64,000 nt of DNA from Escherichia phage BAU.Micro_ELP-22. The notes below the pieces were generated by a model that saw only the letters and a program-made list of their open reading frames with translations, had not been told where the DNA came from and made no database searches. Shown piece by piece: positions 6,320-18,507 of this stretch. Numbering within the stretch: the stretch's first letter is position 1; each line of letters starts with the position of its first letter. Made by a program: the position numbers and the translations under genes. The stretch is taken from the sequence record OR699282.2; one strand, 5' to 3'.

Positions 6320-6511
6320 ATGTTGATTTATCAAAGTGATAATATTCGTGTTATGCAGCATCCCTACTTACAAATCTTTGATGTGCAGCAGTATATGGAA
6401 GGTGATGACCCAAGAACCTATGGTCGTAAGTATGATTACTTCACTGTAAAGCAGTGTAAAAATATTAACGAAGTACGACAATTAGTTCAAGAACTTCAAA
6501 ACAAAGGTTGA
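6320..6511 (+). CDS. hypothetical protein
   Basis: Internal ATG with SD AAGGA (63 aa); ORF track 6266..6511. Confidence 0.5.
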   Translation: MLIYQSDNIRVMQHPYLQIFDVQQYMEGDDPRTYGRKYDYFTVKQCKNINEVRQLVQELQNKG

Positions 6512-11273: not shown

Positions 11274-11306
11274 AGGTTGACTTCGGTCAGCCTTTTTTTG
11301 TAAATA
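11274..11306 (+). terminator. terminator with embedded promoter
   Basis: AGGTTGACTTCGGTCAGCCT + T7. Confidence 0.6.
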
Positions 11307-15933: not shown

Positions 15934-16185
15934 ATGAAAATTTTATTAGTTCTAATACTACTAATTGTTTTACCATTTACGTTAGTATCCCCTGAACTTG
16001 CATGGAATGTGTTTGTGTACTTACTATGTACTATTGTAGTAAATGGTATCTTGTTCTTAGTTCTATTCATAAATGGAATAGGACACGGTGGAGGATGGAC
16101 CAGTACTGCTGATATTGTACATAAAACCACTATGTCTTTATTTGTAGTGTGGAATTTATTCTGGACTTGGTTTGTGTTCTTCTAA
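15934..16185 (+). CDS. small membrane protein
   Basis: ORF 83 aa, hydrophobic. Confidence 0.55.
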   Translation: MKILLVLILLIVLPFTLVSPELAWNVFVYLLCTIVVNGILFLVLFINGIGHGGGWTSTADIVHKTTMSLFVVWNLFWTWFVFF

Positions 16186-16194
16186 TTAAAAAAT

Positions 16195-16566
16195 ATGAAT
16201 ATAGATTTGAAAGGTGCAACCCGAACTGTTATCCTCATTGGGGAATACGCTATCAAGATTCCAACCTTTAAAAGTTGGAAGCTATTCTTAACAGGGATGA
16301 TAGCTAACCTCAATGAACGTTCGTGGATGCAGTACTCCAAGCGTAGTGATACTGGTATCTGTCCTACTTTGTGGTCATCATGTACTGGACTAGTAACTGT
16401 ACAGAAACGTTGTAAGCCAGTACAACATAGGGGTTTATTTTGGGTGGAGTTGTGTGCTTTAGCATTGAATTCAGAGTTAAGTACTGACTTCTTCTATTCA
16501 GATGCGAAGCCAGAAAACTTTGGGTATCTGTGTGGTAAGTTGGTTAAACTTGATTATGGAGATTAA
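16195..16566 (+). CDS. putative mini protein-kinase-like protein
   Basis: AIK lysine motif, DAKPEN catalytic loop and KLDYG (DFG-like) read in translation. Confidence 0.5.
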   Translation: MNIDLKGATRTVILIGEYAIKIPTFKSWKLFLTGMIANLNERSWMQYSKRSDTGICPTLWSSCTGLVTVQKRCKPVQHRGLFWVELCALALNSELSTDFFYSDAKPENFGYLCGKLVKLDYGD

Positions 16567-16567
16567 T

Positions 16568-16837
16568 ATGTACGCACTGTATAATAAAGAAAAGAAACGA
16601 TTTGCTAAGGTTGAAATTTCGATTGATACATTTGATATGTTGGAGTACTGTATTGTAACTGACCTATATGCTAACTTGTATTACGTTCTTGATGACGTAT
16701 CAGTACTGCAACGATTGCTTGAGAATTCCAAAAGTCAATGCCAGGGCATCCATGATGGTTCATCTTATGAAACACCTGAGTGTTCCTACGGCTATCTGGA
16801 CGGGTATGAGATTGTGAAGTTGGGGATTGTTGAATAA
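16568..16837 (+). CDS. hypothetical protein
   Basis: Internal ATG with SD GGAG (89 aa). Confidence 0.5.
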   Translation: MYALYNKEKKRFAKVEISIDTFDMLEYCIVTDLYANLYYVLDDVSVLQRLLENSKSQCQGIHDGSSYETPECSYGYLDGYEIVKLGIVE

Positions 16838-16932
16838 ATGGATTAAACAATGAAGAAGTGTATGATTCTTTGTTCTAATCACCATCGCATGGTACATTCT
16901 GGTAGACTATGTTTGATTGAAAGAAAAAAAAA

Positions 16933-16965
16933 GGGTTGACTTCAGTCGGCCCTTTTTGCTATAAT
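16933..16965 (+). terminator. terminator with embedded promoter
   Basis: GGGTTGACTTCAGTCGGCCC + T5, then GCTATAAT. Confidence 0.6.
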
Positions 16966-16993
16966 CATTTCATCGAAACGAGAGGATGAATAC

Positions 16994-17509
16994 ATGACAC
17001 GCATTAACTTAGTACACGTTAAAGAACTTGCTGACCAACATCTGATGGCTGAATATCGTGAACTCCCACGTGTATTTGGTGCTGTACAAAAACACGTTCA
17101 AGCACGTAAGCGTGTACGTGATTTCAAAATTAACAGTACTTACCTGTTGGGTTCAGGTCATGTAACATTCTTCTACAACAAGTTATTGTACTTACAGAAG
17201 CGTCATATTGATATTGTTAACGAATGTTTGCGTCGTGGTATGAAGATTCAAAACACTGAAGTAAACGACATTAGCGGATTCCCTGCTGAGTTTTGTAATG
17301 ACTACGTACCATCGGAGTCAGAGATTAAAATGTCTCGTGATCGTTTGATTGAGAAGCTCCAGATGAAGCCTAAGTGGTATAAGTTTACTGATGTTGAATG
17401 TCCACAGTACGTTAAAGATATGCAGAACGTAAGTAGTAAGAACGAATCTAGTACTGATATGTTCGACGAAATTGAAGAACAAATCAAAGATGAAATGAAT
17501 AATTATTAA
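16994..17509 (+). CDS. denV: pyrimidine dimer DNA glycosylase (endonuclease V)
   Basis: N-terminus [42 protein letters not shown] closely matches T4 endonuclease V as recalled; SD GAGGA. Confidence 0.9.
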
Positions 17510-17547
17510 AGGAAAGGATTGACTTCGGTCACATAAAGGAACATAAC

Positions 17548-17742
17548 ATGTTATTAGTATATTCAAAGCGTTTCTGGATTTCTTTCATTGTACTTTCGCT
17601 AATCGGCTTCGGTGTGAGTATAATCTTTTCGTGGGATGAATTGGGTACATGGTATTATGAAGTTCCGTGGTACATGAAGATAGCTCCTTGTTATGCGGCA
17701 TTGTTCGTGTCATTCCTTATTGTTGTCTTCAGCGAGGATTAG
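17548..17742 (+). CDS. small membrane protein
   Basis: ORF 64 aa, hydrophobic; SD AAGGA. Confidence 0.5.
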   Translation: MLLVYSKRFWISFIVLSLIGFGVSIIFSWDELGTWYYEVPWYMKIAPCYAALFVSFLIVVFSED

Positions 17743-17848
17743 TTGATGTAGTATTTGCTACACCAAAGTATTTGGATATTTTAGATATAAACATGGACAC
17801 CTGTTCTATCTTTCTGTATTATGTACATCACCAAATGAGGAATACAAC

Positions 17849-18208
17849 ATGGCATCTTTAAGTGAAATCGCAGAATACAACCCACTAACAATCTCAACAA
17901 TTCAACGTACAAAAACTTTTTATTTCCGTCCTGCTGATGGATGGAAACGTGGAATGAATGGTGACTATCGAGTACTGGAAGATTCACTAATCGAGCGTAT
18001 CAACTCTGAACTACAGAAGTATGAAGGTGTTAAAGTTGTGCGTTCAACTTCTCGTTATTTTGAGTACTACATTGAGTCTTCAACTGTAAATGAAAACTCA
18101 TCATTATCGGTGGACAACACTGATATTCTTCGTAATGCAGTTGGTATGTTATGCAACATTGCAGAAGAAATGGGATTAACTATTAGTACTATGAGTGAGT
18201 TAGAATAA
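17849..18208 (+). CDS. hypothetical protein
   Basis: ORF 119 aa; SD GAGGAA. Confidence 0.65.
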   Translation: MASLSEIAEYNPLTISTIQRTKTFYFRPADGWKRGMNGDYRVLEDSLIERINSELQKYEGVKVVRSTSRYFEYYIESSTVNENSSLSVDNTDILRNAVGMLCNIAEEMGLTISTMSELE

Positions 18209-18214
18209 CATAAA

Positions 18215-18247
18215 GGGTTGACTTCGGTCAGCCCTTTTTGCTATAAT
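18215..18247 (+). terminator. terminator with embedded promoter
   Basis: GGGTTGACTTCGGTCAGCCC + T5 + GCTATAAT. Confidence 0.65.
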
Positions 18248-18273
18248 CATTTCATCAACTCAAGAGGCAACAC

Positions 18274-18507
18274 ATGAAACTATCTTTTATACGATTGGCT
18301 GAATTCTTTGGTACTGATGTAATTACTCTACAACAAATCGCAGATAATACATCATTAACTACACAAGAAGTACTTGATTTAGATGTAATTCAGTGCGATA
18401 ATACTTCCATCGATTACAAAGAAGGTCTTGTCGAAAAAGATAAGATTCAAGCTAAAATTAATGGTGCTGGACGGGTTCAGTACTGGAAAGGAGTTTTAAG
18501 TAAATGA
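18274..18507 (+). CDS. hypothetical protein
   Basis: ORF 77 aa; SD AGAGG. Confidence 0.6.
   Translation: MKLSFIRLAEFFGTDVITLQQIADNTSLTTQEVLDLDVIQCDNTSIDYKEGLVEKDKIQAKINGAGRVQYWKGVLSK

Follow-up and report, generated by a model that had tools for sequence, protein, structure and literature searches.

An endonuclease V gene with a C-terminal acidic tail and a putative hairpin-embedded promoter in an Asteriusvirus jumbo coliphage

Introduction

Endonuclease V of bacteriophage T4 is known to lose its initiator Met, to use Thr2 as its nucleophile and to act through Schiff-base chemistry. The enzyme is also known for electrostatic, one-dimensional scanning of undamaged DNA. In T4 its gene, denV, adjoins internal-protein genes, and the features that flank denV in T-even records are genes for internal head or virion proteins.

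Endonuclease V has been noted in the Rak2-like phage CBB, as CBB_519 (PMC5259590), and in phage Sharanji (PMC11895373). Rak2-like phages are regarded as very distant relatives of T4, with 21 of 38 T4 core proteins in common at 20-46% identity, and the core proteins of CBB are about equally far from T4 and from KVP40 (PMC5259590, Table 3). RpoD-like promoters of CBB cluster in CBB_390-546, a region that includes CBB_519 and that the authors of the study regard as early; the same paper treats RpoD-like promoters and terminators separately (PMC5259590). Coupled or overlapping terminator-promoter elements, in which one short stretch of DNA ends one unit and starts the adjacent one, are described for bacteria and phages in the abstracts of two preprints (bioRxiv 10.64898/2026.08.19.745784, 10.64898/2026.02.12.705533).

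Here we analyze the denV locus of Escherichia phage BAU.Micro_ELP-22 (record OR699282.2) within a 64,000-nucleotide stretch of its DNA, referred to below as the window. The locus combines a well-conserved enzyme core with a C-terminal tail that is absent from T4, and it is preceded by a hairpin in which a promoter appears to be embedded.

Results

The denV open reading frame (ORF) lies at 16994..17509 on the + strand, starts with ATG and encodes a protein of 171 aa. An initial annotation of the sequence had named this protein a DenV homologue, and database searches bore out the name. The product scored 56.4 bits with Pfam PF03013 (Pyr_excise; gathering score 23), matched PHROG 1183 ("endonuclease V N-glycosylase UV repair enzyme") at E = 1.2e-58 and, in a phmmer search of PDB sequences, matched T4 endonuclease V (2END) at E = 7.1e-53, which is far above significance in the comparison with T4 DenV that the annotation had named as its own check. 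T4 endonuclease V entries in the PDB, among them a complex with DNA (1VAS) and a covalently trapped intermediate (2FCC), were matched at E = 7e-53 to 9e-52. The annotation had described the resemblance as a close N-terminal match with an N-terminal Thr and an EYRELPR region; both are present, with the Thr directly after the initiator Met, but the actual match is stronger and covers the whole 131-aa T4 core, with a gapless phmmer alignment of residues 1-131 of both proteins and identity at 83/131 positions (63%).

The core of the denV product (aa 1-131; 16994..17386, + strand) was assigned as a pyrimidine-dimer DNA glycosylase/AP lyase on the basis of its homology to 2END, the match of its AlphaFold model and its pN/pS ratio of 0.09-0.10, which indicates strong purifying selection. 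Residues T2, R3, Q15, H16, R22, E23, R26, R117, K121, W128, Y129 and K130 are the same in the denV product and in T4. The 32 aligned homologues show no variation at T2, R3, R22, E23, R26, R117, K121 or Y129 and hardly any at W128 and K130, and the N-terminus MTRINL, identical to that of T4, is invariant among them as well. The AlphaFold model (mean pLDDT 85.5) returned 1ENK, 1ENI, 1ENJ and 2END as its top Foldseek matches (E ~1e-15; target-normalised TM 0.90, rmsd 1.3-1.6 A against T4 endonuclease V structures), and the match ranked after the T4 structures had an E value of 0.9. The denV product is thus like T4 endonuclease V in fold, in the Thr2 nucleophile and Glu23, in the DNA contacts Arg3, Arg22, Arg26, Arg117 and Lys121 and in the W-Y-K segment. 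It is unlike the T4 enzyme at its C-terminus, where Tyr131 of T4 is replaced by Phe and the C-terminal YGKAIYA by an acidic tail of 40 aa, replacements which may alter the affinity of the protein. The ORF is a genuine homologue of T4 endonuclease V, and its product is almost certainly active as a UV-repair enzyme.

The gene itself is already known and is ordinary in 121Q-like jumbo coliphages. It is annotated as endonuclease V in 121Q (gp217, YP_009101804.1) and in many other Asteriusvirus records, and the proteins of 121Q, UB, G17, Sharanji, JP4 and others are 97-99% identical to the one described here, likewise 171 aa long and essentially the product of the same gene, with the tail, the upstream module and the downstream genes in common and few substitutions. 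The DNA of the window is ~97% identical to that of Asteriusvirus jumbo phages (350-380 kb; the Rak2-like 121Q, PBECO4 group), e.g., 121Q, SHEFM2K and UB. A megablast search with 3 kb around denV returned many Asteriusvirus records at 94-97% identity over 70-87% of the query, and the order of gp212-gp223 in 121Q (Caudoviricetes; Asteriusvirus) matches that of the window ORFs. One difference between these genomes adjoins the denV module, where the window retains the 3' remnant of an HNH endonuclease gene (16850..16939, + strand; 29 codons, MKKCMILCSNHHRMVHSGRLCLIERKKKG followed by a stop), recognized by comparison with UB and 121Q. At this site UB has a longer HNH endonuclease CDS ending in CVILCSNHHRMVHAGRLCLIERKKG and a stop; the window is ~320 bp shorter than UB there, and 121Q is without the whole insert. 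The TGA stop codon of the remnant falls inside the TTGAC of the module. A tRNA scan of the window found none.

The initial annotation had taken denV as the main evidence for a T4-like lineage. A T4-like genome (Straboviridae/Tevenvirinae) that inherited denV vertically with its lineage would account for the 63% identity to T4 DenV, and it would fit the presence of remote homologues of 21 core proteins of T4 in Rak2-like phages (PMC5259590), but the remaining evidence makes such an origin extremely improbable. Besides the ~97% identity to Asteriusvirus DNA, the near matches of the 3-kb denV region in the megablast search included no T4-like record, and the rest of the corresponding 121Q annotation holds nothing T4-like. 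The annotation had described denV of the T4-like lineage as lying among small accessory genes, and the gene examined here does have small genes of unknown function nearby; these neighbors, assigned to PHROGs of unknown function or to HNH endonucleases, are, however, unrelated to the internal-protein genes that flank denV in T-even phages. Homologues of DenV occur in at least six lineages, i.e., Straboviridae, Ackermannviridae, Pootjesviridae, Demerecviridae, Rak2-like jumbo phages and unclassified Vibrio phages. In a neighbor-joining tree, the DenVs of Rak2-like phages and enterobacterial T-even phages formed one clade (91% bootstrap), with those of Pseudotevenvirus and Schizotequatrovirus outside it. 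Whereas the CBB core proteins stand at 20-46% identity to T4 and are about equidistant from T4 and KVP40 (PMC5259590, Table 3), DenV is 63% identical to that of T4 and 35% identical to that of the KVP40-like phage ValKK3. The DenV tree, as reconstructed from these sequences, follows host range and not phage lineage. With DenV in at least six lineages and a tree of this shape, the gene is unusable as a marker of T4 ancestry. Taken very broadly, a kinship with T4 is not far-fetched, but denV, with its 63% identity, does not provide the evidence for it. A compositional sign of recent transfer was also looked for and not found, as the GC content of denV (0.372) is the same as that of the window (0.359) and shows no anomaly. 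The GC content of the HNH-like gene at 18504..19928, in contrast, is 0.248.

Upstream of denV lies an intrinsic-terminator-like hairpin (16924..16957, + strand), which consists of an A9 tract, an 8-bp G+C-rich stem in which GGGTTGAC (16933-16940) pairs with GTCGGCCC (16945-16952), the loop TTCA and a T5 run (16953-16957). Position 16933, at which the initial annotation began the unit, is the first G of this stem. The predicted RNA fold has an energy of -19.8 kcal/mol (z = -4.7), and 0/200 shuffled sequences folded as well. A sigma-70-type promoter is predicted at 16936..16965 (+ strand), with 11/12 consensus positions: its -35 element, TTGACT (16936-16941), lies within the hairpin stem and loop, its 18-nt spacer holds the T-run, and its extended -10 element, TGcTATAAT, follows (TGc 16957-16959, TATAAT 16960-16965). 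Transcription would start near 16972, and a Shine-Dalgarno site, GAGAGGA (16980..16986, + strand), is located 7 nt before the denV ATG and is conserved in Asteriusvirus relatives. The terminator-embedded promoter and the GAGAGGA site of the initial annotation were both recovered in this way.

The sequence has the features of an intrinsic terminator, i.e., a G+C-rich stem-loop, a direct U5 run and compensatory stem changes, as well as those of a sigma-70 promoter, i.e., hexamers at a spacing of 16-18 nt that are enriched beyond chance. The T-run is only five residues long, and the spacer of 18 nt compares with an optimum of 17. The arrangement TTGACT-N16-20-TATAAT occurred 5 times against 0.23 expected by chance, and the 33-nt module is present in 12 copies on the + strand of the window. 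RNAalifold analysis of 14 module copies retained 11/11 predicted pairs, three of them with compensatory double changes, and no core stem pair was broken in any copy. The same module precedes denV in 121Q, UE-S1, G17, CMSTMSU, Klebsiella phage KP13-7 and Xanthomonas phage XbC2 and is thus conserved across three genera. At the site equivalent to the denV-upstream hairpin, the G17 record carries a terminator predicted by ARNOLD. The hairpin at 16933-16952 was missing from the output of a simple terminator scan, probably because the A-tract pairs with the T-run and so absorbs it into the stem.

Searches by sequence string and in papers on Asteriusvirus or Rak2-like phages found no description of a hairpin-embedded promoter, and the 33-nt terminator/promoter module appears to be undescribed in the literature searched. 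Going by their abstracts, the coupled elements of the two preprints cited above likewise end and start adjacent units within one short stretch of DNA. The module described here is set apart from what those abstracts describe by its extreme and stereotyped overlap, in which the -35 element doubles as the 5' stem half and the U-tract as the promoter spacer, and by the repetition of a near-identical 33-nt cassette over the early region and in three phage genera.

Given the strong hairpin/promoter module directly upstream, denV might be a self-contained single-gene unit insulated at both ends, as the initial annotation had proposed, and the sequence after its stop codon does open like the module (AAAGGATTGACTTCGGTCA). 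This downstream copy is, however, a decayed half-copy (GGATTGACTTCGGTCA; 17516..17531, + strand) without the outer stem, the T-run or a usable -10 element. Its candidacy as a terminator was rejected, as its fold (-3.2 kcal/mol, z = -0.1) is no better than that of shuffled sequence, and its candidacy as a promoter was rejected as well, as transcription from its best -10 candidate, CATAAC, would begin within the start codon of the next ORF or beyond it. The half-module is equally degenerate in 121Q, UE-S1 and G17, and it is all that the 38-nt gap between the denV stop and the next ORF contains. That ORF has a Shine-Dalgarno site of its own, and the G17 record shows no annotated terminator in the gap. 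Insulation at both ends is therefore improbable, and the claim of a single-gene unit was not upheld.

The next intact module is found after two further ORFs. The first of these (17548..17742, + strand) encodes a 64-aa hydrophobic protein which had no significant family match and is homologous to 121Q gp218; the gene is annotated in 121Q, G17 and UE-S1. The second (17849..18208, + strand) encodes a 119-aa protein of unknown function, homologous to 121Q gp219, which matches PHROG 32140 (E = 2.5e-81) and is annotated in relatives. The module that follows (GGGTTGACTTCGGTCAGCCCTTTTTGCTATAAT; 18215..18247, + strand) has a predicted fold of -18.3 kcal/mol, and a terminator is annotated at the equivalent G17 site. 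ARNOLD terminators are present in the G17 record at both module positions, and none lies between them. From the lack of a terminator after denV and the restriction of the G17 terminators to the two modules, we infer a unit of three genes, with 18215..18247 as the probable 3' end of the denV unit and promoter of the following unit. One transcript would thus carry denV, the 64-aa ORF and the 119-aa ORF. A weak sigma-70-like match at 17794..17822 (10/12 positions) could give the third gene a start of its own.

The C-terminal extension that the initial annotation had reported is real and comprises 40 aa (residues 132-171; 17387..17509, + strand, including the stop codon). It has a net charge of about -8.6, against +7.9 for the core, and the net charge of the whole product is ~0. 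Three segments can be recognized, i.e., a proximal segment of 12 residues, a Ser/Asn-rich linker and a terminal amphipathic acidic helix of 18 residues (17453-17506). The linker is variable in length, is deleted in DenV forms of 158 aa and has a pN/pS of 0.80; the pN/pS of the terminal peptide is 0.29. Conserved versions of the terminal peptide occur in Asteriusvirus, the metagenomic P0008 and P0012, and Xanthomonas phage XbC2. A tail with the conserved amphipathic helix is found in three Rak2-like phage lineages, and the helix follows the pattern D-x-[FY]-[DE]-x-[IV]-E-x-Q-I-K-[DE]-E-M-N-N-Y. AlphaFold predicts residues 138-169 to be helical with moderate confidence (pLDDT 55-81 as means of 10-residue blocks). 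The terminal peptide has a hydrophobic moment of 1.55, compared to a shuffle mean of 0.66 (p ~0.004). The DenVs of many Rak2-like phages are without the tail, and tailed and tail-less forms coexist in the group.

We also considered whether the tail peptide might be a docking motif shared with other proteins. A six-frame regular-expression search of the window found it in denV only, and tblastn searches of 50,697 phage records with the 40-aa tail and with the last 20 aa, at E values up to 10, found only denV genes, at one place per genome. A shared docking motif is unsupported at the sensitivity of these searches. Matches of the tail to DUF6376 (E = 0.004, below the cut-off), IscA and SASP Tlp in Pfam/NCBIfam were attributed to chance, as expected of a low-complexity acidic helix. 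The acidic tail with its terminal helix appears to be undescribed in the literature searched.

The tail may have come to matter more than catalysis, in which case the protein would be a DenV-derived factor with a changed role, such as a DNA mimic or decoy, a virion-packaged protein or a glycosylase for another lesion. Such a role would be consistent with the neutralization of the core (+7.9) by the tail (-8.6) and with the retention of the terminal helix across genera, but the catalytic and DNA-contact residues are all invariant, purifying selection on the core is strong, tail-less DenVs coexist within the phage group, and the peptide was found nowhere else in phage genomes at tblastn sensitivity. 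With this evidence, a changed role is very unlikely. We instead favor a working repair enzyme whose tail would be a lineage-specific add-on, i.e., a flexible linker bearing a conserved amphipathic helix.

Discussion

Our analysis describes ORF 16994..17509 as a probable functional orthologue of T4 DenV in an Asteriusvirus (121Q-like) jumbo coliphage. By analogy with the T4 enzyme, the initiator Met would be removed to expose the alpha-amino group of Thr2, which would attack C1' of the 5' pyrimidine in a cis-syn cyclobutane pyrimidine dimer with the assistance of Glu23. The glycosyl bond would be cleaved via a Schiff-base intermediate and the DNA nicked by beta-elimination, after which host enzymes would complete short-patch repair and UV-damaged phage DNA would be rescued. 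The setting of the gene differs from that in T4: denV here lies in the early region of a jumbo phage, and its expression would be driven by a hairpin-embedded sigma-70 promoter. The gene would be read early by host sigma-70 RNA polymerase, in keeping with the clustering of RpoD-like promoters in the CBB region that contains CBB_519 (PMC5259590), with the 33-nt module halting upstream transcripts and restarting transcription ~15 nt downstream of the T-run. Taken together, a functional T4 endonuclease V orthologue of an Asteriusvirus jumbo coliphage, an early three-gene unit and a lineage-specific tail form an account that we hold with considerable confidence.

Human UNG2, which carries N-terminal PCNA- and RPA-binding motifs, offers an analogy for docking by a terminal extension of a glycosylase. 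From its sequence, the tail most likely either engages a partner protein or bends back onto the basic surface through which the enzyme binds DNA. In the first case, the helix may dock DenV onto a protein of phage or host replication or repair; in the second, the helix may lie on the basic face and tune the scanning of undamaged DNA. A broader proposal would make the tail a regulatory or recruitment module, acting through docking or through the tuning of scanning, and would separately make the 33-nt cassette a bifunctional punctuation mark used genome-wide in Rak2-like jumbo phages; this combined proposal is tentative, and we consider it less likely to be right than wrong.

The presence of denV has little bearing on UV-repair biology, as it encodes a well-conserved version of a DNA repair enzyme that is among the most thoroughly studied, and the gene should be regarded as an accessory gene and not as a marker of T4 ancestry. 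The cassette would delimit the gene units of the early region and so allow the remainder of the window to be divided into transcription units by a simple rule; if bifunctional, it would also be a compact part for synthetic biology. If the tail is functional, these phages would serve as a natural experiment in the modulation of a glycosylase's DNA scanning by charge and by tethered motifs.

denV encodes a homologue of T4 endonuclease V

The denV ORF runs from an ATG start at 16994 to 17509 on the + strand and encodes 171 aa. In a phmmer search of all PDB chain sequences, the protein matched six entries of T4 endonuclease V (2END, 1ENK, 1ENJ, 1ENI, 2FCC and 1VAS) at E = 7e-53 to 9e-52, with aa 1-131 aligned gap-free to aa 1-131 of the T4 enzyme, and the next match in PDB reached only E = 0.17. 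Within this core, 83/131 residues (63%) are identical to T4. The protein also matched Pfam PF03013 (Pyr_excise) at 56.4 bits, where the gathering score is 23, and PHROG 1183, ‘endonuclease V N-glycosylase UV repair enzyme’, at E = 1.2e-58. An AlphaFold2 model made with a 32-sequence alignment as input (mean pLDDT 85.5) was matched by Foldseek to T4 endonuclease V crystal structures with a target-normalised TM of 0.90 and an rmsd of 1.3-1.6 Å, and to nothing else with E < 0.8. Taken together, these sequence and structure matches put homology to T4 endonuclease V over the whole catalytic domain beyond doubt. The initial annotation had named a DenV homologue with a C-terminal extension, and had set a significant alignment to T4 DenV as the check; both features are borne out, and the match extends well past the N-terminus on which that annotation relied.

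Window positions 16000-19000 matched 59 phage records by megablast, the best being Asteriusvirus jumbo coliphages of 347-386 kb at 94-97% identity, including SHEFM2K, vB_Ec-M-J, CRJP21, 121Q, JNE01, JP4 and SP27. Gene order is the same as in 121Q from gp212 to gp223, the counterpart of denV being gp217 (YP_009101804.1), and the protein is 98.8% identical to its homologue in phage UB. The feature beneath the match in Asteriusvirus records carries the same name as the PHROG family. The Rak2-like phage CBB has a ‘UV repair endonuclease V (CBB_519)’ (PMC5259590), and in Sharanji the gene is named ‘pyrimidine dimer DNA glycosylase’ (PMC11895373). From these records and papers, denV is a gene annotated before; its annotation is correct, yet already in the databases.

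Catalytic residues are conserved

T4 endonuclease V acts on cis-syn cyclobutane dimers: the α-amino group of its N-terminal Thr forms a Schiff base with C1’ of the 5’ pyrimidine, with Glu23 as an essential residue. Its DNA complex is 1VAS, and its trapped covalent intermediate is 2FCC. Thr2, Arg3, Gln15, His16, Arg22, Glu23, Arg26, Arg117, Lys121, Trp128, Tyr129 and Lys130 are identical in denV and T4, while the checked positions that changed are Tyr131 (Phe in denV), Gln71 (His) and Arg125 (Lys). Across 32 aligned DenV homologues, T2, R3, R22, E23, R26, R117, K121 and Y129 are invariant and W128 and K130 nearly so. Core pN/pS among three Asteriusvirus alleles is 0.09-0.10. By analogy with the T4 enzyme, the denV product would be a CPD DNA glycosylase/AP lyase.

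denV carries a modular acidic tail

Past the WYKY segment, T4 endonuclease V has seven more residues and denV 40. This tail holds 11 acidic and 3 basic residues, and its net charge of about -8.6 cancels the +7.9 of the core. Comparison across homologues divides it into three segments. The proximal segment, T-x-V-E-x-P-x-Y-[YV]-x-[DE]-[MI], is found in every Rak2-like DenV, in place of the T4 C-terminus. The linker is Ser/Thr/Asn-rich and variable in length, is deleted in two 158-aa homologues (P0003 and P0004), and has a pN/pS of 0.80, near-neutral although from small counts. The terminal peptide, D-x-[FY]-[DE]-x-[IV]-E-x-Q-I-K-[DE]-E-M-N-N-Y, has a pN/pS of 0.29 and is kept in Asteriusvirus, in Xanthomonas phage XbC2 and in two metagenomic homologues (P0008 and P0012) that share 68-73% core identity with denV. 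About half of the Rak2-like DenVs (144-147 aa; KP13-7, CBB and CMSTMSU) lack both linker and terminal peptide, and tblastn, at its sensitivity, found no occurrence of the peptide outside denV in phage genomes.

In the AlphaFold model residues 138-169 form a helix, with 10-residue block-mean pLDDT of only 55-81. The conserved hydrophobic residues of the terminal peptide (F/Y157, I/V160, I164, M168 and Y171) line a single helix face, and its hydrophobic moment is 1.55 compared with 0.66 for shuffles (p ~0.004). Protein-docking and autoinhibitory elements classically take the form of a tethered amphipathic acidic helix, and the denV helix may be one or the other. In the literature searched, this modular tail seems undescribed.

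A predicted promoter is embedded in a predicted terminator upstream of denV

The hairpin before denV is formed on the + strand by GGGTTGAC (16933-16940) pairing with GTCGGCCC (16945-16952) around a TTCA loop, with an A9 tract upstream and T5 (16953-16957) downstream (RNA fold -19.8 kcal/mol, z = -4.7). The 5’ stem half and the first base of the loop make up the -35 hexamer TTGACT (16936-16941), the 18-nt promoter spacer contains the T-run, and the -10 is extended, TGcTATAAT (16957-16965). The terminator-embedded promoter of the initial annotation thus stands, as one copy of a wider pattern.

Twelve cassette copies lie on the + strand of the window, with TTGAC at 6508, 9750, 9933, 11277, 12362, 16936, 18218, 19939, 53360, 57398, 60389 and 62652; 11 have a -10 hexamer and that at 11277 is terminator only. 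Their consensus is AAAGGGTTGACTTCGGTCAGCCCTTTTTGCTATAAT, and the core motif has 5 occurrences where chance predicts 0.23. The 33-nt form GGGTTGACTTCGGTCAGCCCTTTTTGCTATAAT and variants of it recur along this strand. RNAalifold on 14 copies kept 11/11 predicted pairs, with compensatory double changes at three outer pairs and five inner pairs invariant, as expected if the inner stem is doubly constrained as stem and as -35 hexamer. Besides Asteriusvirus, the cassette lies upstream of denV in Klebsiella phage KP13-7 (Alcyoneusvirus) and Xanthomonas phage XbC2 (Mimasvirus).

A simple terminator scan left the hairpins unflagged, probably because the A-tract pairs with the T-run in the tool's stem extension; in the phage G17 record they are ARNOLD-predicted terminators (-17 kcal/mol). 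Judged from sequence, the cassette would both stop and start transcription. Such a stereotyped hairpin-embedded promoter seems undescribed in the literature searched.

A second promoter family, TTGACA-N9-AGTACTG-TATAAT, has 22 matches in the window (0.22 expected by chance), for example at 773, 4735, 15088, 43087, 53928, 54511, 56664, 57973, 58242 and 60819. The palindromic AGTACT in its spacer is invariant, and this conservation hints at a binding site for a regulator, or else at a special type of extended -10. Both strands carry a related form, AGTACTGGCATAAT, at about 46-55 kb.

A putative three-gene denV transcription unit

denV had also been described as an insulated single-gene unit, which is wrong at the 3’ end. 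The 38 nt after its stop codon (17510-17547) resemble a cassette at first, AAAGGATTGACTTCGGTCA, but give way to the Shine-Dalgarno site of the following ORF; outer stem, T-run and usable -10 are all absent, and folding (-3.2 kcal/mol, z = -0.1) does not surpass that of shuffled sequence. The same decayed copy follows denV in 121Q, UE-S1 and G17. The next intact cassette, at 18215..18247, lies six bases past the third ORF's stop codon, and terminators in G17 are annotated only at the cassette upstream of denV and at the equivalent of this one. We therefore infer, from sequence features, a putative three-gene unit of denV, a hydrophobic 64-aa ORF (17548..17742, +) and a 119-aa ORF of PHROG 32140 (17849..18208, +). 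A weak promoter-like match at 17794 may be an internal promoter.

Neighbouring features

A 29-codon HNH endonuclease remnant (16850-16939) separates the gp216 homologue from the denV cassette, and its stop codon falls within the cassette's TTGAC. At this site the gene is longer in UB and absent in 121Q, which suggests a hotspot of homing-endonuclease gain and loss. The 474-aa ORF at 18504-19928 matches HNH/homing-endonuclease PHROGs (E = 2e-15 and 7e-14), has a GC of 0.25 compared with 0.36 for the window, and is probably a mobile insertion; alignment with many relatives breaks off about 18500. The first gene past the cassette at 19939 encodes a 256-aa protein (19997-20767) with a P-loop/AAA-type NTPase signature, matching PHROG 1250 (E = 3e-103) and, mostly under cut-offs, several AAA and STAND-NTPase families of Pfam (E = 1e-5 to 1e-6). 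The minus strand at ~25-40 kb is the counterpart of 121Q gp234-gp248 (26090-40256 of L003, a stretch of the 121Q record), a long array of paralogues annotated ‘regulator of chromosome condensation (RCC1-like)’ that, in the 121Q annotation, lies on the opposite strand and breaks up the + strand early-gene region. In 121Q, 2 kb at 135194-137161 (L003 44195-46162) have no annotated CDS. ARAGORN found no tRNA anywhere in the window.

DenV distribution and lineage

DenV homologues were present by tblastn in 1,100 phage records. Carriers inspected belong to Straboviridae (Tevenvirinae, Pseudotevenvirus and Schizotequatrovirus), Ackermannviridae, Pootjesviridae, Demerecviridae (a T5-like Erwinia phage) and the jumbo phages Asteriusvirus, Alcyoneusvirus and Mimasvirus, with one unclassified Vibrio phage. 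In a neighbour-joining tree of the 131-aa core, a single short gene (200 bootstraps), Rak2-like DenVs are sister to those of enterobacterial Tevenvirinae, with 91% support for the joint group. DenVs of two further Straboviridae genera, those of phages CfP1 (40-42% identity) and ValKK3 (35%), fall outside it and cluster with Vibrio-phage and Ackermannviridae sequences. In contrast, T4 core proteins of CBB share only 20-46% identity with T4 and lie about as far from T4 as from KVP40 (PMC5259590, Table 3), which argues that the DenV tree tracks host range (Enterobacteriaceae) and not virus lineage, the pattern expected for an exchangeable accessory gene. The proposal that denV marks a T4-like lineage is thus not supported. 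Rak2-like phages are regarded as very distant T4 relatives (PMC5259590), a kinship that rests on core genes and not on denV.
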